From NCBI GenBank assembly GCA_964187785.1, contig OZ076409.1:25298001-25362000 (forward strand): 64,000 nt of DNA, written 5' to 3'. Of this stretch, positions 496-54,853 are shown one piece after another. The translations under genes were made by a program, and so were the position numbers. Below the pieces are notes generated by a model, which saw only the letters and a list, made by a program, of their open reading frames with translations, was not told the origin of the DNA and searched no databases. Positions within the stretch are counted from its first letter, which is position 1, and each line of letters begins with the position of its first letter. Source of the stretch: Amphiscolops sp. MND2022. Lineage: Eukaryota.

Positions 496-528
496 TGTGA
501 TAAACTTATTAAATAGTTTCCGGTTGTG

Positions 529-1305
529 ATGACTAAAGCCTCTACTTCTTCATCCAAGTGTGGCAGTTGCAAGAGGAGTGTCAAAGATGGGGACAAATCT
601 GGCATCGCATGTGACAACTGCTCTCTTTGGTACCATGGAGCTTGTGCAAGCCTGTCTGAGGAGGATGTCAAGTTGATGGGACGAATCAAAGGATGTCTCT
701 GGCTCTGCGATTCCTGCCTCAATGATGACATCTTCAGCCCTGAAGCTAAGTACAATCATATTATTGATGCCAAAAATATGAAAAGTAGTATGAAATCAAT
801 TCAAAATTCTTTAACTGAAATCCAATCTGCCCTCAGACCAACCCCTGAACCTGTCAAAAAACATGTAAATGAAGAGAGTCTATCTCGTGAGATAATCATA
901 AATGGTCTTGTTGAGGATAAAGGAACTTTTAAGTCGTCTTTCGAAGCTGACAACTCCAAACTACAGGAAGTATTCAACCATATGGATGAAAAAACTCTCA
1001 AAATAGAATCTACCCGCAGGTTAGGTCAACCCAAAGCTGATATGTCAAAACCAAGGCCGCTCCTCATTCGTTTTGCCTCAGAATGGGATGCCAGGAAATG
1101 TCTTTCAAAATCCTACAGGCTGAAAAATTATCATGAACGAATATTCATATCACAATCTCTGAATAAAGAAGATCAGGCAACCAAACGGAAGCTTTTGCAG
1201 AAACGGTATGAAATGATCAATAGTGACGGGGTACCACGAGATGAAATCAAAGTGAAAGGTCTTAAGCTCTTCAGAAACGGAACTGAAGTTACCTTCCAAA
1301 AGTGA
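529..1305 (+). CDS. LINE ORF1p with N-terminal PHD finger
   Basis: CGSC...IACDNCSLWYHGAC...WLCDSC is a C4HC3 PHD finger. It is followed by a coiled segment and the IIINGL.E / RRLG / PRPLLIRF / IFISQSL motifs typical of CR1/L2 ORF1. ATG at 529. Confidence 0.88.
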   Translation: MTKASTSSSKCGSCKRSVKDGDKSGIACDNCSLWYHGACASLSEEDVKLMGRIKGCLWLCDSCLNDDIFSPEAKYNHIIDAKNMKSSMKSIQNSLTEIQSALRPTPEPVKKHVNEESLSREIIINGLVEDKGTFKSSFEADNSKLQEVFNHMDEKTLKIESTRRLGQPKADMSKPRPLLIRFASEWDARKCLSKSYRLKNYHERIFISQSLNKEDQATKRKLLQKRYEMINSDGVPRDEIKVKGLKLFRNGTEVTFQK

Positions 1306-1311
1306 CTGCAG

Positions 1312-4178
1312 ATGAAAATTTGCCTATTGAATGCACAAAGTGTTATCAGTCTCCAGCAACGATTGAAACTACTCAACTTCTTAAGTTTACACTCACCTGA
1401 TTTGGTTTTTGTCACTGAAACTTGGTTATACCCAGAAATCGAAGACTCTGAAGTTTGCCCATTGAAATGTAACTACTCAATCATTGCCAGACAAGATCGC
1501 TCTGGTGGCGAACACGGCGGTGTCCTCGTTGCTGCCAAAAAGGATTTCTGTTTCAACTACTCTGACCTAACTCAGAAAATTGGACGCAATATGAAAATTG
1601 GCCAAATCAATGATTTTGCCGTCGCGTTTTCCATTACAACCATCCAGGGTTCTCACTTGTTCCTTTTAATTTACAATCCACCATCGACATCTCCATATCG
1701 AATCGAAGCGAACCTTTTGGCTGATTGGATCTCCTCGTGTTATGCTAAATTTGAAATCAATTATCTCAGCTCTTTCTCCATTTTAGGAGACCTCAATCTG
1801 AATGATGTTTGCTGGGCAACTGTAACTGGCCAGAGCGACTATTCCAAAAGCTTCATAGTTCAATCTCAAGCGATGAATCTCAATCCTTTAGTTTTTGAGC
1901 CTACTCATAAGTCTGGTAGCACTCTGGATATAATTCTAACCTCACATTCCGAGCTATTCAATGTTTATGTTGACTCACATCTCTACTCTGATCATTACCC
2001 TGTTTTTGCTTTGCTAAACCTTCCTATCCCCTATTCAGAGGCAGCTACTAATACATCAATTATGTACTCTTCGTCATCTTTTTCTAGTACTCTGTTCAAC
2101 TCCCATTTATCCAATGGTTTCGACACATTACTGGCACTACCAAATTGCAGCTTCAGTGATGTTTCTATGGAAGAATATTTCTCATTGTGGCAACAAACAG
2201 TGTTGTATGCTCTAAATATGTCTTGCAAAATCAAAACTTCTCGCCGATCACAGTATCCGTACTTCTATTCCTCCCACTCAATTCACCTGATCAACAAACT
2301 TCGTACAGCTAAAAAATGTAACTACAGAAATGGTACCACTGAAAGGTTAAAACAAGAGATTAGTTTGTCAGTTGAATTAGACAAAACAGTCCTCCTTGAA
2401 AATCTATCTCCTGTCTCCACTCGTTCTTGCTTCAAGTTTTTACGCTCTTTCTCTTCGAATCGCTTGCCAAATCAAATGAACTGGAACACACTGAAAGCAA
2501 ACACCAGTAACGAAATTGCTAATCTGTTCAATAGTTATTTCAGCTCTGTCTTCCAGAAAAGTTTAGATATACCTTTGCAACCACCTGAACTACCTACAAT
2601 CCGTTTGGAAGATTTTACCATCAATCCCTCTGAAGTCGCAGATTTACTCTCGAAAACTAAAACTTGTTCATTGAGCTCAGACCCTATTCCTACTTTTTTG
2701 CTGAACTCATGCCCAGATATTTTGGCTCCGCTGGCCACTCAACTTTTTAATGTAGTAATAAAGGCAAGAAGTTGGCCAACTGATTGGAAATGCTCATATA
2801 TAACGCCGATATATAAGTCTGGAAACCCCGAAAGTGTGGAAAATTATCGGCCCATCAGCATTCTACCACAGCTCTCACTTATTCTCGAAAAATTGCTCTT
2901 CCGACACATATACCCGCAAGTGCGATTCTCAATCTGTGATGAACAACATGGTTTCACAAAGAATCGTTCTCCTATTACCCAGCTCTTACCCTATCTAGAC
3001 GATTTGTATAACCAAAAAGATATTAACGCTTCTAGTTATGCTATCTACTTCGACTTCCGGAAGGCCTTCGATTTAGTTCCACATCATATTCTTCTGGAAA
3101 AACTGGCAAATTTTAGCTTTGATGAAGATTTTTTGACCTTATTCAAGTCTTACTTATACTCAAGGTCACAACGAGTATCAATAAATGGCTCCCTCTCCCA
3201 GATGGTGGACATTAATAGCGGTGTACCTCAAGGCAGTGTCATCGGACCTCTTTTCTTCATTATTTTTATGAATGATCTTCCTGACAAAATTGTCAATTCC
3301 TCATGCTATTTGTTTGCAGATGATAGTAAATTACTGTCTCTTCTGACCAAACCTGATTTACAAAAGGATATTGATCAGTTTACTGAATGGGCTTACAGGA
3401 ACAAAATGGAATATAACATTGACAAGTGCAAGTCAATCACTTTCGAGGAAAAATTAGCGTCGTCGGATCCTCTGTTTCTGAACGGTAATATTGTTCCCAC
3501 CGTTGACTCAATTAAAGACCTTGGAATCACCATTTCAAACAATATTACTGGGACAACCATATTCAAAAGAAATTGGTGGCTGCTAGAAAAGCTTATCATT
3601 TCTTGAAGCGCTCAATTCCTCATAGTGTTAGTTCTTCCACGAAGCTTATGTACTACAGGTTGTGTGTTCAGAGTATTATACTATACGGATCCCAAATATG
3701 GTACCCCTCCATTAATTACCGACGGAAGTTGGAACTATTCAATAAAGAATGTCTTTTTTGGGTAACTGGTTTACAAAATTATTCACAGCAGCTGGCAGCG
3801 TCCAATACCCTACCTCTATCATTCTATTTGGTCCTAAATGACATGGTCTTCCTCAACAAGGCCATAAATAACAAATATGACCTAAATCTCAGCACCTTTA
3901 TTTGTTTCAGCAAACGTTGCAAGGATCTCAGAAGTTCCAAATACCAACAACTCCTGCCAGTCAAAAGATGTCGCAAATTCTCCACGAGAGACTCCTTCTT
4001 CCAAAGAGTCTGTGACTACTCCAACTTCCTCGCCACAAAAGAGATTGACGTTTTTGACCCAACTGAAAAATTTAAACGTGAACTCATGGCATACCTACGC
4101 AATCAAGTCCCAATGTTCAATTTAGACCGAAGCTGCTCCTGGTTTATAAAATGTCTCTGTAGCATCTGCCGCTCTTAG
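1312..4178 (+). pseudogene. LINE ORF2p (apurinic endonuclease + reverse transcriptase), single frameshift near 3548
   Basis: APE motifs LNAQS, VTETWL, GDLN, TLD, SDH. RT motifs NYRPIS, YFDFRKAFD, GVPQGSVIGP, LFADD, DLGI. After a 1-nt loss near 3548 the frame continues as WDNHIQKKLVAARKAY... to CLCSICRS* at 4178. Confidence 0.9.
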
Positions 4179-4256
4179 ATTTGATCAACTCAGTTTGTAA
4201 AGCCTACATTACAACTGCTTGAATGTTCCTTTATATAAAAAGGGAATTAAGTCTTC

Positions 4257-4342
<86 letters not shown>

Positions 4343-4358
4343 GTAGTAGTAGTAGTAG
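4257..4358 (+). repeat. (TAG)n microsatellite, 34 units (one TAT variant)
   Basis: Read directly. Confidence 0.97.
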
Positions 4359-5770
4359 CTGTAGTCTCGGTCCGAAAAAGGCGGAGTGACTACCCTTTTT
4401 CAGACCATGGCCAACAAACGCTTAGGACCTAGATCAGATTACCGTTTTCAGACCAGCTCTGTAAAAACCCTTTTTCAGACTTCTGCAATTTCTGAAAAAG
4501 GAGTCACTAGGAGTTTGAAAAAGGTGATTTAACCCTTTTCAGACTAACTAGGCCAAATATTGGAGACGGAATCTTACACCAATTCGCATCATCTTTATTT
4601 TCATCAGTATAGCTTTCATGTTTTGCAACGATAAGGGTTCGAATACTTGGTACAGTTTTATTGAATAGACGTACACTTGAATAACATTAAATGTTTGTTT
4701 TAGGCACTTTTGAGGAGGTGGAAAATTCAAGAATGCAGAATTCAAGGATGCAGAATTGACACCAGAGACTTTATGAATTTTGTTCATGAATTTCACAGAA
4801 AGTTTTATTGATTACCAAGTTCTTGAACCTTCCTGGGAGCTAATGATTTCTTTCTATAGATTTCTTGCTACTCTACATTGATATCGCCACTGTGTCAAAA
4901 AGAAAAAAAACTCTCAAAAGATTTGATTCAATAACTATTCAAACAGTTTCGAGAACTCTCAAAACAGTTTCGATTCAGTAATTCGAAGATTGGAGGAAGA
5001 AATAAAAGTACACAACATTAAAAACAAGTCACTCATCTGCCAACGTGCACTGATCAAAACAATCGTCAAACAATGTTATCACCAAAACAAGTAAACTATA
5101 AACATGTAAAACTTGTGAACTAATTACGGATCAATGAGGCCAAATGAATACAAAAAACATCATCGTCATTCAATAAACAAAAAAGAGAAGCCAATGACAG
5201 GAAATTTAATTGAAGAAAATCATAAACATTCTTACCAAATCTAATAATTGTAGCCCGAAAAACATGTGCTCTGAAGCATGTACGAGATTGTTTTTCACGA
5301 AACGACATCACAGGATCCGTCAAAAGAAAAACTTGTAGAGGAATTTTAATAACTGTAAGGAAAACACAGAATCGTTCAATACCCCAAAACATGACTTCCA
5401 AAACATGTACAGGAAATCAAATGACTTAAAATTCAAAGCATCAACTCGATGAGCAAGCCAAACCCAACCCCCTAATTTTTGGTTCCAGCCATGTATGAGA
5501 TGAAGATTTTGATTGTCAGCGGAGTTAAAATTCCAAAACGTGAAATCAATGACCCAAAATCAAAACATATTCTTTTGTAAATCCACTTTGAACTCGAATA
5601 GAGGTTTGTCATTGTCAATTTAAAGGCGTTTCAGTCATGTTGAATAAACACTTAGAAGATGGTTAAGAACCACAAATTAGGTCATGAGGGGTATATTTAT
5701 CATCATCATCAAAATATCATTTGATGAGTTCCATTCATACAAAGGGTGGTAGCTCGAAACGTCAAAGTAA

Positions 5771-8700
5771 TCAGAACATTTTATATCCACAATCCTTCCA
5801 TTCATACAGAACTTTCATTAAAAACTGTACTGTGGAGTATTTCAGGTTTTGTACTTTTTTTACGTCTTTGGTTAGTTCCACGAAGGTGCGTTTTTCTTTT
5901 CCTGTTTCTCGTCGGACAAACTCCGAAGCAACAATGGAGTATACCGCTGTGCTGTATTCATGTCGTTGAGGACGTGACCTTAAGAATTGCTCTACTAAGG
6001 TTTCGGAAGGGACACCGTCTTCAAATTTCTTCTCACTGCCGAAAGGAAGACAGACTTTAGATTTCGACTTCTGTTTGATGACGCGCCTCTTCTTGGAAGC
6101 AGGGTCCTCATTGTAACTTTCATCTGACTCGTCATCATCGACATCGTCATCATCAGCACATTCATCATCCTCGCTGACATCAGATTCATCTCTCATCTCT
6201 TGGTCCTTGCTGGCTGAATCGGCTTCGAAAATTTCATTCAAAGAATTTTTAATTGTAACTGCAAACTCTATATCGAGATCATTTTGTTTAATTGTAATGA
6301 CCCTGTCAACTGCATTAGAGGTGGTGCAAGCATCGTACTCCTTCTGTATCATTTCGTAGTGAGTTCTCGCTACGTTGCGAGAATGGCCAATGTGTCGATC
6401 GAGAGATCGTTCCATCTGGACATCTTCTAAGTTTTCAGCGAAAATAGTACAGAACGTTTTCCTCCAACGATTGGTGTTAATTGGTACAGGTAGTTTTAAA
6501 TGGCATTCGAGGTAACGATTCCACTTTCCCATTACATTTCTCCGAATGGGTTCGCCTTCTTTTTGATCTAACTGTAAAAACAACAGGCTCTGCTCAGCAA
6601 CACGCAAAGTGCACTTTATCCTCAAATATCGAATAAAGCAGAATAATTCTTTCTCTGATAGAGCCACACGGCGAACTCCTTCGCTTTTAAAGTTCTTGTT
6701 TGTGTTTCTGAAATCGTTTGTGACTTCATCGATGATGCTCCGGATTCCAGTCTTCTTTATGGCATTCAGTTTCTTTAACTGATGTTCATCAATAAGTTTA
6801 AATACAAATAAGTTACCTTTGACATGACGGATATTTTGCAGATATTCTTTGCGGATGTATAGCGCAGTAGAAATTCGGCACACGTTGCGGCACACAAGAA
6901 TAAAAATGAGGCAACATTGAAGATGCTTATACTGCCTTTCTTTATTCGTGTAGGTTTCGTTTTCAAACGCATCCAAAAGTTCATATAGATATTCGGTCAC
7001 TTTTTGGTAAACTTCGAGAACAGTTTCCTTAGAAGCCACTTGTCTCGATCCGACTTCCTTTGCTGTGGCCTTTCTGAAAGGCAATTCGGCACTGACCGAA
7101 GACTGGTATCGATTAAGTGATCTCTCGACTTGATCACATTTTAGGGCGAAAGTTTTGGAATGGGGATCGGAGGCTAAACGACAGAATTCGACGAAATCTT
7201 TTAATTCCCGACAAATCTGGCTTTTCGTCTGTCCTGCCTTTACATTCTGTTCTACTTTAAGTTTTGCAAAGTAGACGCTGACACTCTGAGCACTTGAAAA
7301 ACCTTCTGTGACAACAACAAAAAGTTTGATTTTTTTGAGCAAGTTTGATATTCGTTCATCGGCGTATCTTCGAGCTCCTTTTCCGTTGTCAAAATCAGCA
7401 TGTTTCTCTTCGCGCCATTGATTGATGATTCTCAAAAAATCAAGTTCCGCCGAAAATGATCTAACTTGCAATTCCAATTTCGAACGCTCTGTATTGTCCG
7501 GCTCTCCGAAGAAGAGGACACTTTCGGGTAAATCTTTCACTTTGGAGATAGGTTTAATGTAAGTCTTATGTCCCGAGATTGAATGTTTGTCGCGCCTATG
7601 GAACACAGCAAGACATCCTTCTTTACTACAGATGTACATGCATTTCCTCGTACCTCGGTTCTTCGCTTCAAAATAATGCATTTTGACTACAGCATTTAGG
7701 GCGGCTTTGCTTGAGTAGTTATGAATTCTTTTGAGATGCTTTGGAAGACACATGTGCGTTTTTAGTTCTGTCTTACAAAAATGGCAGCGCACAGAGTAAG
7801 GGGCTTTGCGAACGGTTGATGCTTCTCTATTCTTGTGCTCGTCAAGTTCGTTTCTATCTGAAGAGTCTTTTCGTGCCAGGTTCCTTACGACAGCTTTTAC
7901 AACGTTGTCATCAAAGCCCACACTTTGATAATTGCCCCGGTTGTCCCCTGTTTCTAATCTGGGTTGCTCTGAATGGATATCCTTCAAATGTCGCCGGATA
8001 TGTGTTTTCTCGCTGTCGAGAAAAATTGTTCTGCATCTGAAAAGAACAGATCGTTTTAAAAGGTGAAACTTCTAACCTTGACAAACCTAATGACTTCTTG
8101 CAGGAAATTACAAACTCACATTCATTTTTAGTTTTTCCACGATTATGTTATTTGTTTTTCAATGAGAGCATTTCTTGGTAAGATTTCAGAAACAAGTTAT
8201 AATTAATGGATATATATTTCAAATGCATATAATAATATTATATTACAGTCGAATCCGCCTAATTCGTATCGCTAGGGACCGAATAAAATACTACGAATAA
8301 CGAAAAATACGAATTAACACGATGATATTACTTTGGTCGTACGAATTAAACGAAGATCCGAATTATCCGGATACGAATTAACCGGAGTTGACTGTATTAT
8401 TCTTATACGTATAACATACATTTATATATATACTGAAAAAGTTTCCCGAATGATACTTTTGTAACACAGAATTTCATTGCAGTTTGTTCTATTATTGTCA
8501 CCTTCTTCTGACTTTCAACAAAAAACGCTTTTTTAAAAAAAACTCGATGATCTAATTGTTAATATAGGTTTTTTTCAGAAGTCAGAAAAAGGTGATAAAC
8601 ATGTAGCTAACATCATTGTTATATCATAAGTATCACATGAAAGAGTTTCGCATGAAGGTATCATAATCGAGGCGATCTTGAAAAAACACAGTTTGAAAAA

Positions 8701-10031
8701 GGGGATAAACTCAATTGAAAAAATTCGAGGAAGGTTTTTTACCTGAGACAAATGGTGGCATTTATGTCTCTTACATCAAGAAATTGGAATCGTTTGGTAC
8801 ACTGCTGACGGAGGTAATGTTTGACAACATCAACTTCCTGTTGCAAATTTTCCCCGCAGTAGTGACAGGTGCAGCAGTACTCTTCAGATACGGATTCAGT
8901 TGTAACTTCACTTGTCGGCTTCTCTTCTTCCTGTGTTATGTTAACTGACAGCAAAACGTCTCTCTTTTCATTTTCTGAATTCTCCACTTGAAATTCGACG
9001 GTCAAACTGCTGGACACTCCTGTCATTTCCTGCAGATCACACTGCACTTTTTTACAACTCGTTTCTAGAACAAACGTCTGCACAGAGACATCTCTTTGAG
9101 TAGAAGCTGCGTTCTCGAATTTAAGTTGAGAACCAAGTTTGAACGATGTTGGTAAAGATTCACCAACTTGAACACACTTCGAATTTGCATCGATGGCCCG
9201 CACTTGAGTCATCACTTCCTTTTTGTTGAGACCCACAGACGAAACGTGTTTGACATTTCCCCCGAGATGAACTCCCCAGTAGAACACGTCAAGGTCGCAG
9301 TTTACACCTGGACATTATTTGCATTAACAGAATATTTTGAATTAAATTGTTCAAAGTTTTTTGAAAACTGGAATAACAGTTGGGTTTATTGTTTTTTGAA
9401 ACAATTTAGAGACCACAATTCTCTATCATAAATTTGTCAATTTGGTACAACGAGAACAGTGAATTCAAGATGTCCGATTCATTAGATTAGTTACGAAATC
9501 CTATTTGATTATTCGGAATAATTTTGTAATGCAAATTCCAGTACCTTGATCGACACCTCCACGGATTTTTATTGGCGTCACTGACGCTTGTGTTGAGCGC
9601 CATGGGAACGATTCTGCATTACCTCTCCCACACAAGTAGTCGTACCTAATTTCATCTCCGACGGTAATCTTTTGCTTCGCCTTCAGGCCGATGTAGGAGT
9701 TTGAATTGATAACAATTTCATATGGGCGAGCGTTGGGTTTGCAGAAGTCATCATTAATGAATCTAGCGAGCCCAGATTCAACATTTCCGGCATCAATGTA
9801 TTCATTTTTATGTGGGATATCAAAAATATACCCATTATCCTTCTCAGGGGTACCTTTTCGTCGTTCTCCTCTGTATATTAGGAGAAAGTCTCCTATGTCG
9901 TAGTCCTTTGTTGCAAACAGACCGTATCCAACGTTGTCATCAATAAACTTGACATTGAAGCAGTTGTCAGGGTCTTTCTCAAGATAATCTTCAGCTCGAA
10001 CAGATTTTCTGGGTAAGCTTCTGCGAGACAT
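5771..10031 (-). CDS. SET(PR-Set7/KMT5A-like)-zinc finger-tyrosine recombinase fusion, 3 exons (10031-9545, 9307-8743, 8036-5771), ~1105 aa
   Basis: GT-AG introns of phase 1 and 2 join three ORFs into one stop-free 3318-nt frame; the second junction rebuilds a C2H2 finger (CLR|CRTIFLDSEKTHIRRHLKDIH). SET: GYGLFATKDY..GDF..Y.G, YIDA, LARFIND, GDEIRYDY...FPW. YR: RNVCRIST (R), NKNFK (K), NTNRWRK (H/NxxR), HIGHSRNVARTHY (H...Y). Confidence 0.82.
8246..8394. mobile_element. Tc1/mariner-type MITE in intron 2 of element A
   Basis: TA|CAGTC.A.TCC...GGAGTTGACTG|TA with TA target duplication. A second copy lies inverted at 52677-52850. Confidence 0.85.
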
Positions 10032-10967
10032 TTCTTTGAACAAAATGAGATTTAAGAACACTCAGATCTGAAAAAGGTATACAGATTAAGAACTGTTCCT
10101 AAATCAATTTGAAAAATGTTTCCAAAGTATTGAAATTGAACTTCTACTTGTCCTCTTTTCTTAAATACAATGGCACCAAGAGAAACATGTGGTTAGAACA
10201 TCAAAACTCCCCAGGACATCTAAGGAAAAACGTCAATAATAATGTGTCAGGTTTATCTTATTGTTTTTTGTTCTGGGGTTGGCCACTGCCCCGTGTCCAC
10301 TTTGAACCACCGACCCCAACTCTCATAAATAGTAAAGGTTCTGGTGACACATGAGTCTCTTCATTAGATAACGAAAAAAACGTTTCCGATTGTTTCGTGG
10401 TTCTGTAGTGATGTGAGAAAAACTAGAAGAAATGTGAGAAATGAAAGACTAGAAGTTATTCGAATTTTTGAGAAATGATTTTTCCATCGAAACTTTTTCC
10501 AAGAAAAGGTGTTTGAAGGACTCGATTACACCAAAATGGGAATGATGCAGTAATTCGAGTGAAAACAGAATTTTTATCATTTTGCGTTGTTCGAAAAGGG
10601 TTTCTTGTAGCTTGGAAACGTGGAATAAAGCCAGTAACCGTGGATGAACTAGATGTTTTCTTTACTGACAAAAACTTTGATCTCCTATACCGTTTCAATT
10701 TGATTATATAATTTTTACATCTTGGCTGTCAATGAGTGGTTTTGTATCGGCAAATCTGCTTTCATTTTTTCGGTAGGGTGACTTCAAATCATTTGAGCTT
10801 CGTCTGAGCGAAGAGTGAGAAGGTGAAAAGGGAATTTCACAGTTTTGTCATGGGTTTTTCTTCAATTCTTCGTCTCTCGTTTCATCTTTTTTTTTCAATT
10901 TTTCTTCACAATTGCTCGATATGACAAACTGAGGAGCTTATAAGAATTCCGAACGTTCATCACTTTC

Positions 10968-11075
10968 AGAAACAGTTACCACATCCAATGAAGGCAGCAG
11001 GCTCGGAATTACCCTCTTCTAGCGCGGAGAGGTAGTGACTAGTAATAACAGGATGAGCCCTTCGGGGCGAACCTT
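10968..11075 (+). other. Short diverged 18S rRNA-like fragment inside element A (not a functional rRNA gene)
   Basis: AGAAACAGTTACCACATCCAATGAAGGCAGCAGGCTCGGAATTACCC...GAGGTAGTGAC..TAATAAC matches the conserved eukaryotic SSU stretch GAAACGGCTACCACATCCAAGGAAGGCAGCAGGCGCGCAAATTACCC...GAGGTAGTGAC...AATAAC. Confidence 0.8.
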
Positions 11076-12097
11076 GGACTGGTGAGAAGGTAACCTCACT
11101 AAAGCATACGCTTGCTCAGGCTGTTGTTACTGTGTCGGCTGGCACCAGACTTGCCCTGAGCTAGAAAGTGAAAACGTCTAATAATTTTTTTCAACGATCC
11201 ACTTTCGTTGACTTTCCAAAATGTCTTCTTTCCCTCGTGTTTGTGGGAACTCTGCGAATCAAATGTCTCTACCCTTGTTGTTGACAAATTTTTCCAACAG
11301 ACGTAACATTGTATAGTGTTGATAGTGAGGATGTGCTTCGTTACAGGACTTTTCAGTTGTGTGTATAACGAAAAACACAGTACCACAAGCGTTTAAATTT
11401 GGAAAATTGTGGCAATGAAGCGATAAATTAGTGTCTCTAGTCATATATTTTCTATTTCTCCAAGTCACGAAGCGTAACTAAACCCTGTGGAGCCGCTTTA
11501 CAGGAATCCTGTAAAAAAAATTTTTTCACTCTTCTCGAAAAGTTCGGAAACACCTGTTTCCAACTAGAGATGTTGGAAGAGATTATCCCATTTTTACACG
11601 TGGTCACATATATCAATGATTTTTGGTGGATAGACCCTCTACCCAAAGGGATCTTCAGAGGCGAAAAGCTGTGCTCAGAAACTCATTCTGGGAGGAGAAC
11701 AGAATGACTCGTTCTTGGGCCTTCTGGCCATGTTTTTCGTCCCTAATCGTAAGATTCTCTTGTACACCAATGTGATCTCTGAGCACCTGCTTTTTAGTAT
11801 GAAGGTTTAGTTCTGGTCCTGATGTTTTGATTAAGAATGAAAGAAAGGTCGGAAATGTTCATTTTATTTAATTGTGTGTTCAATGACAGAAGCCTCCAAC
11901 GAAGGTTCTTCTCCATTGATTAAAACCTGTAGCATTTTCTTCGAAGAAGAAAATGTTTGACAAAACCCATCATAACAACTGCCACTGAACAACGTTCACT
12001 GAGAAACAGCTCAGAAGTAATGATATTTCACTTGGAAAAAGTGCGAATGATTTTGGGTAATTTCCGCAACTATCTACCTTTTTCAGAGTCTGGCTAC

Positions 12098-12206
<109 letters not shown>

Positions 12207-13474
12207 TAGATATGGAGGACAATTTAAACCCCTTGCGGTAGTAAATCTGAGGACAAGTTGAATGGCACAGGGGTTTAAAATGGCATCTTAAAATGGACAT
12301 GCCAATTAAATAACACTGGTTGCCATTAGGCAAGCAAAAATAGTCTAGAACGTCTAATAAGGCCAAAAAACAAAAAAAATCAACTAGTTGAAGTTGTTAT
12401 TTCTTGCGATGAAAAAAGTATTAGAAAATTTTTTTGGGGGACAATTTGAACATAAGTAGGACAGAATAATGACAAGCATTTCAAGTTGGCATGATGATTA
12501 ATCTCAGTAGTAAGAGCTTGGTGGGAGGCAGATTCTCCAACATAAAGTTCAAGTTGCAGCTATTTTTGACATTGACGTGAACTTTCACGACCAGTTTAAA
12601 TCATATTGTGTGGGGGCATTTTGTGAAACTGCGATTAAGAACCAAACTTTACAAATGACCAGGATGATGTCTCAGTTAAAAATAAAAAAAAAGATGTCGG
12701 GCGTAGATGAAAGTTGGGATTAAAAATAGCAACAAACACTTTTGCCCAGAATTTTGTAATTTTAAAGAGGCTCTCAGTTAGGGGAACACATAGTGTCACC
12801 CATAACAAGACCCACGTCGGGAACGTGGCCTCTGACGGGTCTCATCGAAACAAGCAACATAATTATTGAAATTATTAGTAAAACATTATTACACCAACAG
12901 TTTCAAAAACAATTATTGTTTCTTTTTTCATGATTTCATTGTAAAAAACCAAGTTCAGGGGTCTTTTGTCGTGCGAAGAAGAAATCAGCTAATTGAGGTG
13001 TGAAAGTGAAGTTGCATCTGATTGGTTCTGGCTACGCCAATCAATTTGTTTGATAGTTTTTAAATACCCTGTATACAGTCAATTTATACAGTCAATTCAA
13101 AATTATTATAATAAATTTGAAAAACCCTGTTTACAGTCAATATTTCTACCGTTGAAAAGGAAAACAAAAATGCAGAATTTATTGCAGGATCTAAAAATTG
13201 AAAATATAAGGGTATTGGGGATAACAATAACTTTAGGGGATATTACAAATATAAAGAAACAAAAAAATAATTTCAATACGTTTTTGTATTTGAAGATATA
13301 AGTTTATTGGGGATATCAGTAAATTTAGGGGATTTTACGTTTATAATGTATTCCATTAGGAATTCCATTCGTATTGTACCGAATTTGATGAATTATTTCA
13401 AGTAAAATTATATCTAAGAAGTATATCTAAGAATTACATGTAAGAATTATATCTAAGTAAAAATGGAAAAACAA

Positions 13475-13556
13475 GAGAGTTGATGGGATTCGAACACACT
13501 CTTAACCAATCGGAATCACATTCATCATCTCGAAGTAACCACTAAGCTATCCAGCG
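13475..13556 (-). other. tRNA-like (Pol III A/B box) sequence, probably a SINE head or decayed tRNA
   Basis: Minus strand GGATAGCTTAGTGGTT (A box) ... GTTCGAATCCC (B box). A complete cloverleaf is not evident. Confidence 0.5.
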
Positions 13557-14274
13557 TTAACGGTGACATGTGGAACTTCAATATAAAATGAATAGAAACT
13601 CATTTGTTATAAATTATAGGACTAGAAATTCATTTGACTGCAGGAAAGAAGTGGGTGGAGGAAAACTTGGAGGTGGAAAGGAAAACCCAATCCCCTAGAT
13701 TTCCCCCATCCCCATCTTTGATAATTCATTTTTACTTGATCACTTATATTTGATTATGAGGATATGCACAGAATCAAAATTCCAAAGAAACAATGCTGAT
13801 ATCGGATTGCTAGTACAGCTCTGTGTTGAAAAACAAGATGCAGGAGTCTATTTTTGGAAAAGGGTTCAAATGTACCCGGTTTTACTTAACATTAGAATAT
13901 CATTTGTTAATTTAGTTTTATTATAAAGTTTTTTATATTAGATTTATATTATTACTTAACCCATCAAATTAGACGCAAATTTTATATATAAAGTTTCAAG
14001 TTTTTCAAGTTCATAAATGCGTCCAATTTGACGGGTTGAGTAAGTCATCAGTCACAGTCGGCTCATACTTTAACACCTAGATTTGATTGGGTAATACCTC
14101 GCATCTGATTGGTACATCCAGTTTTAGTGACTCTTTTTGTGGCCTCCATATTTCTACTTAAATCTATTCATTATATTACAACTCACATCCAACTAGCAGA
14201 CTGTTTAAATCACCGTACAAAGTCCTAATACATTTTTCTCCAATTTGTCCAATTCCAACCATTCTTGAAGAAAG

Positions 14275-17200
14275 ATGCCAGTTGCGCTAAGACGCCGACA
14301 AGGCACTGAAAAAAAACAAGCGGAACCGCCTTCGAAGAGTCGTAAAATTGACCCCCCTGAACCAATCGAAGGAAAAAATACAAGAAATAGACAGCAACCA
14401 AATCTGACTGAGAAGTGTACGACTGCCGCGAAACCTCTGGAAAGAAAGAATCAAAGAAACATTGCGCAAAAATGTCAGAAAGGGACAAATCCTCCGGAAG
14501 AAAGTGTACAACCCTCTCAATCGAGAATTACTCGACAGCCAGTAAAAATGGCAGAGAAACCACCGCATTCGAGAACTACTAGACAGCAAAAAAATGCAGC
14601 TGAGGAAAAAGGACTCACATGCCAAAAAACCACAGATGTCAACCACGAGGAAAAAAATGCGCAAAAATGTCAGAAAGGGACAAATCCTCCGGAAGAAAAT
14701 GTACAGCCCTCTCAATCGAGAATTACTCGACAGCCAGTAAAAATGACAGAGAAACCACCGCACTCGAGAATTACTCGACAGCAAAAAAATGCATCTGAGG
14801 AAAAAGGACTCACAAGCCAAAAATCCACAGACGTCAACCACGAGGACCGCGACAACATGATAGAAAAAAGTATAACGGGCGATGAAAATGAGGAAGTGAC
14901 TTCGAATTTCCACCCCTCAACCACATGCGAAAAAACCACAGACGTCAACCACGAGGACCGCGACAACATGATAGAAAGAAGTCTAACGGGCGATGAAAAT
15001 GAGGAAGTGACTTCGAATTTCCACCCCGCAACCACATGCGGAAAAACCACAGACGTCAACCACGAGGACCGCGACAACATGATAGAAAGAAGTCTAACGG
15101 GCGATGAAAATGAGGAAGTGACTTTGAATTTCCACCCAACTAGTTCTTCAACATTTATAGAAGAACACATAGAAAAACTACAAGATCCCGCAGACGGAAA
15201 CCAGGAGGAAGCCATCGAAATACAACAGCACGAAATCAGAGAAACACCTTTTTTCGACCACCCTTTCGATTTGGACGTAATCAGCGAAAAGTTAGCAGTT
15301 ACGCCCTCAATGGAAAGTCTCCAGTACGATTTCAAAAGGGCTCAAATTCGAACAGTAGATGTATTCAAACGTCCTTACAAACCTTGGGAAATTTTGGGTT
15401 TTGTTGACGCAAAGCTGACGGAAGATTTTATTGACAATACATTTGTCACATCTCATAAGCTCTGCATTCATGAGAATTACCCAGAATTCATCAAAGAGCC
15501 AAAATATGACAAATTGAATCTGATGATGTATCAGTCATATGTGGAGGCAATGGAGTCGGTGGCTTTTGTCCCAACACCCAGCTACGGGGACGGCCAAGGG
15601 TTCACACAACTCGCAGTAGTAGCCGGTAAAACAATTCCACGAAAAAGGCTGATTGGCGGATTGAAGGGATTTACCGCGATAATTGATTCGCAAGACCTGA
15701 AACCTGGCATGGGATTTTCATTGTTTGCCCGAAGTCTAATCCAAAAAGAAGAACGAATCATGTTAGGTGCGGCCAGTTTTCTCAACCACTGTTGCGACCC
15801 AAACTCCAAGTGAGAATGTTTTCAAAAATTTACTAGTTATGATAGTAATACGACAAAAATAAAAGTAATAACCAATTAAAAACCACTGGTTGCACTCAGT
15901 ATCATAGATATGGAGGACAATTTAAACCCCTTGCGGTAGTAAAACGAATAATCCAAAAGCCAAATTAATTTAAATATCCAAGGGCTGGCTTCAAGGCGGA
16001 TTCGATCTCCAGGCCCTGTGCTTGCAAACTTGACGCACTAACCATTCAGCCATCCCACCTACATTTGTTTCTATTTGTAATTAAATAAATTGTGGTTAAG
16101 AATTTGGATTAACTTGAAGCTTCCTCATGCTCAGAATAATTCGAATTTTTTAGATAATATTAGTCTAATACTAACAAAATTAATATTTAATAATATAATG
16201 GTAACATTACAAAAAATACAAATATTATATGTAATATTAATTTGATGTTTTAGATACGTGGTAACTGGGAAAAAAAGTGCAACACTTATTACAATAGAAA
16301 CCATCCGAGAAGTTAAGAAGGGAGAAGAAATAACAGTTTATTACGGCAGTGATTATTTTGGTGAAGATAACAAGGATTGTTTGTGTCCAGAATGCAAAAA
16401 GAAAAAAGTTGCCAAAAGCAACCCTCAAACTAAAGAATTCAATCGAAGCGAAATTCGAACGGAAATTGGAGTTACGTCCCCCGCAGTGGAACTTCATGAA
16501 GATGAATTGAATCAAAGCGAAGTTAGAACAGAAATTGGAGCTACGTCTCCCGAAGTGGAACTTCATGAAGATGAATTGAATCAAAGCGAAGTTAGAACAG
16601 GAGATGAAGGCACCAACACAGTTGAAGCCACACCCCGCGCTGCGCAACCTCCTGTTGCAATGAGCCCACCTCGAGAAGCTTCTGACGATGAGTTGCAGCT
16701 CATCAAACGAGAGAAAAAAGTCAAAAACACGCCGGGGCCAAAACAGTGTATTGTGTGCAAAAAACTTTTTCTACGTATGGACAAACACATCGAGACACAT
16801 GCCGATCGTTTGCCTGAAACTAAATGGCGACGGTTCATCTTGGATTTCTACCGCTGCCGAAATGCGCCACCAAACATGAAAATTTATGACTGTTCGGCAT
16901 GCTTCAGACGTTTCAGGTCACTGCCTACGCATAAGTATGGTCCCAAATGTTCTCCCGCTTCAATTACAGAAGTCCCAAACCCGGGAAGCCGAAGTTCACT
17001 TCCCGACGAAATCAGAAAAGCACTGAAGTCGGATGTACTGCCCAGCCAAAACGACTTGGAAATAGCTGAAAAATTTATTGAGTATAGAAATCAACTGGCA
17101 GTCTGTGGGGGAAATGAGAAATGGAGCCAAGACAGACTGGGGATGAAACAGCTCATGGCCATGTTTTATCAAAGAACAAATGGATTGACTCAACCAGAAT

Positions 17201-19904
17201 GTCTAGTGCAAACTTGCCTACAAATTCAAAAAGAAAGGAACCTTAAACCCCAAACAATGTTAAGTTACCTGTCCACGTTCGTTCTTTTCTGTGATTATTG
17301 TTTCCTCTATGGCGTAGGCGTGAGTTCAACCTCAAATGGAGACCGAATTAAAGCAGCAATTAAGGATGCCAGAAAAGCGTTTGCCCCGGCCGCTGTACAA
17401 AATTACAGAGAAACAGCGCAGGAAATGATGACAAAGGTCCCCAGTAGCACTTTGGTGAGACTTAGAATCAAACAAATTGTGGAGAAGTTGCAAAACAACT
17501 TAGAGGAGAATGTTTTCAACTACAAAATTCAGCAGAGCTTGAATTTTTTCCTGCTTCAAGCTAGAATTAACACACGGTACGTACTTTGGAATAATTTTTT
17601 GAAACAAATTGAACTCACCTGCAATTCTAGTAAAGCTGGTAGAAAACTGAAAACGATTAACTAACAGATTTGTTGGATGGGTAAACAGAGGTAGTAAGTT
17701 GAAGTTGCAGCAAAAGGGGATAATTCAAGTTTGTGAATAATGAAAGTGAATTCCAATGTGAATTTTTCAAGTGTATAATTCAAGAATTAGTTTTGTTATG
17801 AATTCATACTGAAATTAAAAGTTTACAACGTTGAAGTGGAAGAAAAGTAAACTAAAAACATCTAAGAGTTATTGTGATTGGAATTTACAAATTCACTGTA
17901 CTAGGTGAACCAAACCAACTTTTGAGTACTCAAAATTCCGAATATTTGTCAACAAACGTTTCAAAGCTTTGAAAGTGAGAACGAAATGACTGGTATAGAC
18001 GTCTAGACTATTTTTGATGGTTAAAACCAAATGATTGATGGTTAAAATGATTGATAGATAAAATTGAGAGATTCACGTTTTTTTGGTTCACCTAGAATAG
18101 GAATATCAGTTGACAATCATTCAGTTCAACAGAACAGTTAATCAATACACGCACTCTGTACGCAGAGAAAGATAAGATGATTCAGTTCTGCACACAACGT
18201 ATTTCACACTACATGCACTGTGTACGCACAGAATGATTCAGTTCTGCACACAACGTATTTCACACTACATGCACTATTTACGCACAGAATGATTCATTTC
18301 TGCACACAACGTGTTTCACAATACACGCAGTGTATGCACAGACTCATTCACTTCTGCTCTAAACGTGGCTGCTGATATTACACCGTAAACACTGTAAATA
18401 GAGTCAACGGCATTTTTGGAAGAAAGTTTATTTGAATTTAGGAAAAATATTTTGATACTAATGTTTCAGGATATTACAAAAGTAGAATTCATTTCAAAGT
18501 TAATCAAAGTTATGAATCAAAGTTAATAAATCATGAGTTATAGTTCAAAGTTGTTCTCCAAAATTTGGAATTCAATAAATTTTAAGGTTTTTTACAAAAT
18601 TCCATATGCTTTCTAGCATGTGAAATTATAATTCAGATGACAATATATAATTTAGATAAGAAAATATAATGAAGATTATATGATAAAACGGAGATAATAA
18701 AATATATTCAAGATGATAAAATATAACTAAGATGATATAATATAATGTTATATTATGATCTAATATTAATATAAAAATATATAATTTAATAATGATTCAG
18801 ATGAGAAATTATAGTGTTGATGAACAGATAATTTTTGCTGATTTATTCATGCTGATTTATTTTAGAGCGGGACCAATCTTACAGTTGAATTGGGAAGAAT
18901 TTGAGTCAATTTGTGAGACAAATATGGGTCTGACTACAAACAAACATAAAACTGGGAAGTTTTATACAGTTCACCTGTACGTCAACCAAGATCAGAGACC
19001 ACTGCTGCGGAAAATGCGACAGACCTACATTGACGAATTTAATGCCACCCCACGATATATATTTTCATCGCCGAAGAACAAAGTCGAGTCCAGCATTTGC
19101 GCCAACCTCCAAGAAACTTTTCAGAAGGTTTTTGGGGACAATCCAGCTGAAGTTCGGTTTAATGCCAACTCAATAAGGAAGTACTGGGAGCGTCGCTGGC
19201 TCGTGATTCAGAAACAAGTCAGTGATGGTGTTTCGAAGGCGCATTTTGCGCAAACTGCGCATAGCAAAAAAACAGCTGAAGAAAATTACTTGGAAAAAAA
19301 CGGCACCCCAGAAGATCGAAACATACTCTTTGCAACATACGGCAAAGATTTAGAACGTTCGGACATTGAACAAGAGGAACCCGAAACAGCACCGCCCAAC
19401 GAATCAGTAGAATCCGACTTTGAAGATGATATGCCAACTGTGAAGCCTCAGCACATTCAAAAGCCAAAGGTACCACCAAAGCCAACTCTTCGATTCAATC
19501 CCCTAAGAGACTCTCTTCAAAACGACCCCTCTAGGTCCCCCCTAGTGGCATCCCCTCTTGTGGCATCCTCTTCCTGTGCCCAACTTCCTGTGGCCCAACT
19601 TCCATCAATTTCTGCAGTCGCGGGCCGAAATAAAGAGAGAGAATCCTTAACTTCAACACTTGAGACCATTGATACCCCGAAGAAGAAATATTTTGCATCG
19701 TTGAAATCCTTCAGAGTCAAACCCAATAGGCCCCCATGGACGGAAGAGGAGAAGAAAGCATGTATGTTCTTCGAAGACTACCCTTACGTCAATCGAGTTG
19801 AGGTAGAAAAACGAATCCAAGAATGTGGAATCACTCTGACAGCTGCAGCCTATGACAGGATTTGGGCAAAAATTAAGACTGCAAGACAAGTTTTGAAGAA
19901 GTAA
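14275..19904 (+). CDS. SET(Suv4-20/KMT5B-like)-zinc finger-tyrosine recombinase-Myb/SANT fusion, 3 exons (14275-15809, 16254-17576, 18866-19904), ~1298 aa
   Basis: Two phase-2 GT-AG introns give a stop-free 3897-nt frame. Junction 1 rebuilds SET: FSLF...MLGAASFLNHCCDPNSK|YV...REVKKGEEITVYYGSDYFGEDNKDCLCPEC. Junction 2 rebuilds the YR arginine motif: RINTR|AGPIL. Also KHKT (K), NANSIRK (H/NxxR), TAHSKKTAEENY (H...Y), a CIVC..H...H finger, and a C-terminal RPPWTEEEK...WAKIK Myb-like segment. Confidence 0.85.
14464..15140 (+). repeat. In-frame coding tandem repeats (195-nt unit x2, 111-nt unit x3)
   Basis: AQKCQKGTNPPEE... starts at 14464 and 14659. TDVNHEDRDNMIE.S.TGDENEEVT.NFHP occurs three times at 111-nt spacing. 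Confidence 0.9.
15903..15943 (+). repeat. Internal direct copy of element B left terminus
   Basis: 15904-15943 is identical to 12206-12245 (40 bp). Confidence 0.92.
15984..16059 (-). other. tRNA-like (Pol III A/B box) sequence in intron 1 of element B
   Basis: Minus strand GGGATGGCTGAATGGTTAGTGCG...TTTGCAA...GATCGAATCCGCC. Stems are imperfect. Confidence 0.5.
18117..18358 (+). repeat. 56-bp minisatellite (~4 diverged units) in intron 2 of element B
   Basis: TGATTCAGTTCTGCACACAACGTATTTCACACTACATGCACT... starts at 18178, 18234 and 18290, with degenerate flanking units. Confidence 0.88.
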
Positions 19905-20584
19905 ACGAGTTGAAGGAGTAGTTGTTATAAACTTGTTATGAACTTTTCTTTTCCTTTCTTGGTGCTCTTAAAGAATTCATCCTTTTCCTCCGTTCTATTG
20001 CTTTCTTATAATAATTATTATATAATCTTATTATATTTTATATTATAATATTTTATTATTTTACATAATTATTATATTATATAATATTACTTTTATATTC
20101 ATTTCAATTTAAAAAAGTTTTAACTTCCTTATTTCTTCTTGAAATTTAAGGACGCGAGTTTTGGTCAAGGACCGTTAATTTGAAAGATGAATGGTAACAT
20201 TTTTGAAATGAGTTTTTCGAAATTCAATAAATAACGTTAAATAAATAGCTTTAAAAAACGTAAAATCTTCCGTCAAATTGAAAGTTAAATAACAAATTTG
20301 AACGACTAAAATTGAAATTCATTTTACTAAGGTCCAAAACAGCAGGAATTCGCGTGACTAACATCAAAAAAGGTAATTTCCTTAATGAATAACCCAAATT
20401 TTTTCTACTCTGCTGAAATTATTTCAAAATGGTTCTTCAAATAATGACGGTAGTAAGCTAACAGAGGACAATTTAAAATTAATACTCAGTATTAAGCCCT
20501 TTTAAATTGGCACTTCGAGCAATAGAGACTTATTAAATTGGTATCAGAATACTAAATGACTACTTAAAATGTCCTCCATATCAT

Positions 20585-23162
<2,578 letters not shown>

Positions 23163-25107: not shown

Positions 25108-54853
<29,746 letters not shown>

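Follow-up and report, generated by a model that had tools for sequence, protein, structure and literature searches.

SET domains and other chromatin enzymes have been described on several DNA transposons. HarbingerS and MuDR elements of Phytophthora (PMC12730594) and a proto-Helentron (PMC4067079) carry a SET domain, and TET/JBP enzymes have been passed among fungal transposon lineages (PMC12730594). DNA transposons that encode a recombinase and insert in microsatellites are known as CryptonV (PMC8869645, citing Kapitonov and Jurka 2012), and the model for Cryptons is one of excision followed by site-specific integration (PMC3212892, PMC9977147). Transposon-borne SETs and microsatellite-targeting Cryptons are known separately. 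In the literature searched, which left out Repbase Reports and most subscription papers so that a prior description there is possible, we found neither their combination nor any account of SET-recombinase fusions of the lineages that write methylation on histone H4 lysine 20 (H4K20); the available sections of PMC9406493, PMC5753468 and PMC9004415 do not describe such fusions. Here we analyze a 64,000-nucleotide stretch of the Amphiscolops sp. MND2022 genome (assembly GCA_964187785.1, contig OZ076409.1, positions 25,298,001 to 25,362,000; hereafter the window), in which two neighboring elements, A and B, each encode a SET domain related to H4K20 enzymes. In each element the SET makes up the N-terminal portion of a predicted SET-recombinase fusion of about 1,100-1,300 amino acids, which the initial annotation of this stretch had missed.

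Two elements with predicted SET-recombinase fusions in one TAG array

The features of the two elements, in window coordinates, are as follows.

4257..4358, + strand: (TAG)n array at the far end of A
4359..12099, - strand: element A, a 7.7-kb CryptonV-like DNA transposon with a TAG array on each side and further copies
5771..8036, - strand: A exon 3, zinc-finger-like motifs, core-binding and catalytic tyrosine-recombinase-like domain, acidic tail
about 7021-6281, - strand: A catalytic motifs R...K...RWRK...GH...Y, within exon 3; the fold search leads to phage and Xer recombinases
8743..9307, - strand: A exon 2, linker and beginning of a Cys/His-rich region; predicted in-frame GT-AG junctions, continuous in P0013 and P0002
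9545..10031, - strand: A exon 1, SET domain placed with moderate confidence in the PR-Set7/SETD8 lineage (Pfam SET, E 1.6e-11)
12100..12204, + strand: (TAG)35 spacer, remnant of a target array common to A and B
12205..20585, + strand: element B, an 8.4-kb CryptonV-like DNA transposon with a TAG array on each side and further copies
14275..15809, + strand: B exon 1, repeat-rich N-terminus, Suv4-20-type N-terminal helical region (D..T..D....SHK), first part of the SET domain
15904..15943, + strand: 40-nucleotide copy of B's own left end, in B intron 1
16254..17576, + strand: B exon 2, rest of the SET domain, zinc-finger-like motifs, recombinase core-binding region up to the first catalytic Arg
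18866..19904, + strand: B exon 3, catalytic tyrosine-recombinase-like domain (K...SIRK...AH...Y) and C-terminal helical region
20586..23033, + strand: (TAG)816 array at the far end of B, almost perfect

Predicted GT-AG splicing of three exons in each element yields one open frame without internal stops, of 1,105 amino acids in A and 1,298 in B. The first junction of A is read straight through in the intronless relative P0013 (79% identical), and the junction within B's SET in L124/L125. SET and recombinase are found in a single open reading frame in relatives of both types (L136, L141, L143 and L151) and in P0002, P0004 and P0005. The motifs by which the two SET domains had been recognized are in place: GDFLLIYRG, IDA, LARFIND, GDEIRYDY and FPW of A all lie within the minus-strand exon 10031-9545, and SHKL, GFSLF and LGAASFLNHCCDPN of B stand at the end of exon 1 (to 15809), with the quoted 25-residue segment in exon 2 (from 16254). 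It is also evident that the spacer consists of exactly 35 TAG units and that the two genes are divergently oriented, as annotated. FPW had been taken as the terminus of A; it closes a SET domain without post-SET cysteines but is not the protein end, as the predicted spliced frame continues to its full 1,105 residues. The 444-nucleotide intron that interrupts B's SET, and the tyrosine-recombinase-like domain in which both proteins finish, had escaped notice.

Both elements have further copies in the source genome (G000). The A SET exon gives 9 matches at 99-100% identity. Of the 8 copies besides A itself, six are bounded by TAG arrays on both sides with the same junctions, one is truncated and one lacks an array; two of the eight represent one duplicated segment, and frameshifts occur in three. 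B has two more copies, each flanked by TAG, that match it at 99.6% over 8.4 kb, and there is also one diverged copy. A single (TAG)n array thus holds A and B, both of them young DNA transposons present in multiple copies. Their inverted terminal repeats are short and imperfect (17 of the first 25 bases match in A and 18 of 25 in B), and the arrays adjoining such elements range from about 5 to more than 800 units. The 40-nucleotide left-end copy in intron 1 is also present in B's two other near-identical copies; it may represent a recombination site within the element or a short nested insertion.

In an alignment of 18 recombinase sequences, the R, K, H and Y columns are invariant or nearly so and the second R is near-invariant as well, while the first His of the R-H-R-Y-type catalytic set is replaced (N.xRK). 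When the recombinase model was used in a structural search, 17 of the top 50 matches were titled integrase or recombinase; one of these is XerH (Z 8.7, root-mean-square deviation (rmsd) 5.4, 242 aligned), and Xer, lambda and Cre recombinases appear at Z 6-9. Atlas gave a phage-integrase lead (0.92) for a relative. Weighing against this assignment, the structure model is of low confidence (pLDDT 66), and Foldseek and a PDB profile search gave no significant recombinase match, so that only the wide structural search matched. A Pfam scan found no recombinase domain in A or B, and none of 104 database candidates was a longer protein matching B's recombinase exon. The C-terminal domain of A and B is likely a tyrosine recombinase. 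Such a catalytic set, no reverse transcriptase (no frame for one was found within A or B) and retained introns (two in each element) are the hallmarks of Cryptons, and insertion specifically in microsatellites is that of CryptonV.

Lineages of the two SET domains

SET trees were built from 70 of 72 rows (2 partial rows left out) and from 53 rows (19 left out, namely a long-branch host SET, partial rows and close relatives). B-type SETs group with Suv4-20/Set9 at 100/100 in both trees, and a profile of 14 B-type SETs matches SUV420H1 at E 1.8e-27 and 99.9 bits, with the next family at 43.9 bits. The B SET, already annotated as Suv4-20 type, can be assigned firmly to the Suv4-20 lineage on these comparisons. 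Single candidate KMT5B and SETD8 genes were located in the host genome, KMT5B by a protein query after a DNA pattern had given nothing. We rejected the possibility that B's SET was captured recently from the KMT5B of this host, because element SETs are not sister to the host gene (p-AU 0.019, a value that long branches may bias), and inheritance of B's SET intron from host KMT5B was likewise rejected, because the host gene has no intron at B's position.

The A SET has an N-terminal RRS..RK, Tyr at both monomethylase positions, ND in place of the NH motif, a short i-SET, a C-terminal PW and no post-SET cysteines. A profile of 16 A-type SETs finds SETD8 best, at 62.1 bits versus 58.4 for MLL1; for the A SET alone, yeast Set2 is the first match and SETD8 the second. 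For both SETs the resemblance greatly exceeds chance. A-type SETs and host SETD8 form a group with 97/93 support in the 53-row tree, and grouping with Set1/MLL is rejected (p-AU 0.033). Among known folds, the A structure model is closest to hSET8 (Z 16.7, rmsd 4.2, 140 aligned), with MLL1 at Z 14.3. The RRS..RK of A aligns with the basic stretch of host SETD8, nearer the SET core, in a region where model confidence is low; Arg188 and Arg192 of human SETD8, within this stretch, anchor and bind the nucleosome (PMC7893823). Several points weigh against this placement. Before pruning, in the 70-row tree, the group had 93/93 support and then included one long-branch host SET; grouping with EZH is not rejected (p-AU 0.075); the His of the NH motif is Asp in 16/16 aligned A-type element SETs; and the i-SET region of A is about 10 residues shorter. 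The A SET is best placed, with moderate confidence, in the PR-Set7/SETD8 lineage. The annotated PR-Set7 type is thus upheld by the best tree, profile and fold match, but qualified by the narrow profile margin and the unrejected EZH grouping. The claim that the two SETs had separate origins is supported. The two monomethylase Tyr columns of A are taken to be SETD8 Tyr245 and Tyr334, and we infer that A would be a monomethylase.

Substrate pocket and selection

In Suv4-20h2, Ser161 together with a pocket of Phe191, Trp174, Ile181 and Ala178 imposes the requirement for H4K20me1, and the roles of Ser161 and Tyr217 are described in the same source (PMC3874154). In B, Ser161 (in exon 1), Tyr217 and the zinc cysteines are preserved, but the Trp174 position, also in exon 1, is occupied by Met and the Phe191 position by Tyr, the residue with which exon 2 opens, ahead of the catalytic Tyr and the CxCxxC zinc site. 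The Phe191 position is Tyr in 8, Phe in 3 and Trp in 2 of 13 intronless Suv4-20-like relatives; at 8 intron-bearing loci it is Tyr in 4 (one being a B copy), Phe in 1 and unread in 3. Among 150 database matches, sorted into classes by crude motif rules, Tyr is found at this position in 44 of 70 scored element-like proteins (21 more were unscored), in 11 of 16 scored other proteins, several of them named wasp proteins, and in 0 of 42 fungal proteins that were classed by motif as Set9-like. B thus appears to have lost the pocket that requires pre-methylated K20; it would then have no need of A's product and would work as a monomethylase or as an enzyme relaxed in the manner of Set9. Two observations count against such a switch. 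A Phe-to-Tyr change in Suv4-20h1 led to a dramatic loss of activity (PMC3874154), which makes it possible that B is weak or dead rather than switched, and Phe is retained in the 3 intronless relatives counted above.

SET domains are under purifying selection between subfamilies. In 9 pairs of SET codon alignments, the ratio of nonsynonymous to synonymous substitution rates (dN/dS) is 0.06-0.18 in 4 and dS is saturated in 4; one very young pair, at dN/dS 0.92, does not fit this pattern. The GxG-like motif, the Asn, the catalytic Tyr, Ser161 and the zinc ligands are nearly invariant across subfamilies that are only 28-60% identical.

Apparent replacement and possible repeated capture across the genome

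We scored the best 150 of 348 Suv4-20-like, the best 150 of 483 PR-Set7-like and the best 150 of 761 B-type recombinase candidates, and all 61 A-type recombinase candidates, of which 48 were matches. SET-recombinase elements in this genome number well over a hundred. In a 37-row recombinase tree, 16 Suv4-20-type sequences form one clade (99/100) joined to 10 PR-Set7-type sequences (90/97), with A's clade apart. These results suggest that a Suv4-20-like SET replaced a PR-Set7-like one in the same N-terminal slot. Against this, distant rows serve as the root of the tree, a long-branch warning applies to it, and which SET took the place of the other is something that we infer. The Suv4-20-like SET lineage also occurs upstream of or fused to transposases (L132, L137, L139, P0057, P0075 and P0151) that are called CACTA-like from DUF1258 and Transposase_21 matches, mostly below curated cut-offs. 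Several CACTA-linked SETs, at these same loci and proteins, have NS for NH and a changed last zinc ligand.

A further recombinase family, young and abundant (99-100% identity), has a PHF8/KDM7-like JmjC gene (E 1e-8) about 0.9 kb before a PR-Set7-like SET and recombinase, as in the following element.

G000:C2:75320567-75346566: JmjC-SET-recombinase element (L168+L167+L169), HQD...H metal motif present

No microsatellite flank of this element was found in the 26 kb examined. The PHF8/KDM7-like JmjC family was scored for 40 of 309 candidates at 99-100%, and 30 of the 40 have, by eye, a listed SET match at that distance. PHF8/KDM7B removes H4K20me1 as well as H3K9 and H3K27 marks (PMC6130214).

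Further repeated SETD8-related SETs (L163, L164 and L165, and L039-L045, L053 and L054) lie at the C-terminal end of the frame, and several keep NH. They group with host SETD8 and with a fish protein in which a recombinase is followed by a C-terminal SET, which suggests a separate capture. Related elements are flanked by (TAA)n/(TTA)n (L127, L128, L130, L133 and L135) or (AC)n (L147) in place of (TAG)n; these non-TAG flanks are target switching within the group. In sea urchin, XP_011669515 combines an ND-type SET with a recombinase. In the wasp Trichogramma kaykai, a recombinase fragment is joined by a Tyr-bearing Suv4-20-like SET that groups with wasp SETs and not with the element SETs described here. 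Divergent Suv4-20-like proteins of chalcid wasps (P0122, P0130, P0131, P0133, P0153 and P0095) all have Tyr at the Phe191 position, and one of them follows a recombinase fragment. Other host SET families, in the 30 loci examined, are not repeated element-borne types. Host SET loci include three near-identical copies (L028, L029 and L030) and three genes (L026, L031 and L032) that were classed by motif as SUV39-like and NSD-like, respectively.

Proposed role and alternative explanations

We consider it about an even call that each SET serves its own element, methylating H4K20 where its recombinase binds, rather than relaying with its neighbor. Following the Crypton model, the recombinase would bind the element ends, excise the element and integrate it with fixed polarity into TAG arrays; different families would pile up in the same arrays because their recombinases integrate there. 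The fused SET would be carried to the same nucleosomes and would most likely leave H4K20 in a low methylation state, with every element acting on its own behalf. Because a Suv4-20-like SET occupies the same slot in a clade whose nearest relatives carry a PR-Set7-like one, the two SETs can be read as interchangeable, and the need served by either may be the setting of the H4K20 state of nucleosomes on the element or the target. Such a mark may aid expression, integration or repair. It counts against this proposal that, by eye, the sequence after B's zinc site shows no clear counterpart of the acidic-patch anchor at the C-terminus of SUV420H1 (Y349, R352 and R357; PMC10697951), a motif to which snail and host KMT5B show, also by eye, something similar.

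The best surviving alternative, although clearly less probable, is that the SETs persist because they bind nucleosomes or act as decoys, or that they methylate something other than a histone, for instance the recombinase, and leave H4K20 unmodified. The His-to-Asp change and short i-SET of A, the Phe-to-Tyr change of B, which nearly abolishes Suv4-20h1 activity, and B's shortened N-terminal domain are all compatible with such a role, and purifying selection fits any retained function. This alternative is harder to reconcile with catalytic and cofactor residues that stay nearly invariant across such divergent subfamilies. It also sits poorly with the presence on elements of two H4K20 writer lineages and a PHF8/KDM7-like eraser, when the other host SET families at the 30 loci did not recur on elements.

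The initial annotation had proposed a two-step relay, in which A would write H4K20me1, B would convert it to me2/3 and the families would gain from proximity; we find this improbable. The divergent genes had been suggested to act in sequence, but the layout is set by TAG polarity. Among 15 A-type loci, the coding strand of 12 carries CTA runs exclusively, one locus is mixed and two are without runs; among 14 B-near loci, 9 have only TAG on the coding strand, 5 have none and none has CTA; and a second PR-Set7-type clade has TAG at 9 of 10 loci. Orientation to the TAG strand is fixed per family, antisense in the A-type and sense in the B-type, and for this reason an A-type element to the left of a B-type one must diverge from it. 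Convergent and tandem neighbor layouts also occur.

Nor are mixed neighbors enriched. For the neighbor test, 152 recombinase positions were typed on 13 large contigs, two of them approximated from loci examined, and removal of one duplicated segment and merging of internal repeats left 141. There are 22 neighbor pairs within 15 kb versus 0.3 under uniform placement, an excess attributable to a target common to the families. Mixed PR-Set7-type/Suv4-20-type pairs account for 9 of the 22 versus 10.3 in label shuffles (P = 0.78), in a test that is rough and weak against a small effect, its position lists being the best 150 matches and its classes being set by identity tier and checked on about 45 loci. 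Co-occurrence of the A and B families beyond shared target preference was not supported by this test. Neighbors of A's own clade and the Suv4-20 type number 5 versus 3.0 expected, an excess that leans toward the relay but is not significant (P = 0.16). A near-identical B lies beside 1 of 9 A copies, and A beside 1 of 3 such B copies. The two SET lineages do correspond to the two host steps (PMC6130214), B keeps its Ser161, Tyr217 and zinc cysteines, and the proteins could act in trans wherever the genes lie. Yet B has Tyr at Phe191 and Met at Trp174, and some Suv4-20-type subfamilies use TAA arrays or CACTA-like transposases; moreover, B would not need A for a primed substrate, because the host has its own SETD8 and KMT5B genes. 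A and B likely lie together because their target is shared and not as a relay, and their adjacency is in itself ordinary.

Marginally less probable still is that A's SET is an active histone methylase of other origin or target (EZH-like, acting on H3K27 or another lysine), so that the H4K20 convergence would be only apparent for A: the narrow margin over MLL1, the first match to Set2, the unrejected EZH grouping and the altered i-SET specificity region would allow it, but the best tree, the best fold match, the N-terminal helix with its basic, anchor-like stretch, the C-terminal PW and the lack of post-SET cysteines point to SETD8, and the Set1/MLL grouping is rejected.

Across the genome, the elements converge on enzymes related to H4K20, and it is this that deserves to be tested. 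The chromatin enzymes that transposons carry indicate which marks restrict or favor them, and H4K20 is singled out here, as members of two writer lineages and of one eraser lineage are spread over three types of element; no established role of the H4K20 mark in transposition was found in the literature searched. A broader view, which we offer tentatively and which may well be wrong, is that H4K20 methylation is a battleground between host and DNA transposons, with repeated capture, by recombinase and CACTA-like elements, of both writer lineages and a PHF8/KDM7-like eraser, swapping in one slot, and a Suv4-20 rewired by Phe-to-Tyr, separately in wasp elements, into an unprimed monomethylase. 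On that view, the SET-recombinase fusion would amount to a naturally occurring histone writer, directed to particular sites, and would mark the place at which it integrates. The elements offer enzymes that are young, intact and amenable to assay, together with naturally arisen Phe-to-Tyr variants in which the setting of Suv4-20 product specificity can be examined. A class of SET proteins left 'uncharacterized' when animal genomes were annotated (sea urchin, fish and wasps) can likewise be accounted for as transposon proteins.

Other features of the window

A long interspersed nuclear element (LINE) with a PHD-containing ORF1 and an endonuclease-reverse transcriptase occupies positions 517-4256, its 3′ end adjoining the TAG array. 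The same or similar LINE ends adjoin arrays at L020, L115 and L117, in both orientations, and for this reason the idea that the TAG arrays are mere LINE tails was rejected. At about 26600-39020 lies a BEL/Pao-like long terminal repeat retrotransposon with 243-nucleotide direct repeats, four tandem copies of a 1.7-kb internal segment and broken frames.

Comparison with known systems

Like PR-Set7/SET8/KMT5A, A has a basic anchor-like stretch with an N-terminal helix, the two monomethylase Tyr residues, a C-terminal PW and no post-SET zinc. It differs in NH changed to ND, an i-SET about 10 amino acids shorter and the fusion to a recombinase. A also lacks an upstream PIP-like region, and the A protein begins at the basic stretch. 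Like Suv4-20/KMT5B and fungal Set9, B has the N-terminal D..T..D..HK region, the FS motif (Ser161), LG..F.NH.C.PN, Tyr217 and the CxCxxC zinc site; it differs from Suv4-20/KMT5B in Tyr at Phe191, Met at Trp174, a shorter N-terminal domain and the recombinase fusion. Fungal Set9-like proteins, as B, are without Trp at the Trp174 position.

Among transposons, CryptonV (2012 Repbase Reports, via PMC8869645) likewise combines a tyrosine recombinase, no reverse transcriptase and microsatellite insertion. Unlike in A and B, a SET domain is not mentioned for it in the available text, and the two elements are called CryptonV-like from their features. The Cryptons F, S and A of 2011, as described in PMC3212892, have no terminal inverted repeats and 4-6 bp terminal direct repeats, whereas A and B have inverted ends and flanking TAG units. 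HarbingerS, MuDR, proto-Helentron and TET/JBP elements are similar to those described here in that captured chromatin enzymes reside on DNA transposons and have moved between unrelated transposase types. HarbingerS, MuDR and Helentron, however, move as DDE or rolling-circle elements, and Clr4 was the protein with which the SET of Helentron was compared. The SETs described here are of H4K20-writer lineage and share a single polypeptide with a recombinase; their genome is of animal type and holds hundreds of candidates.

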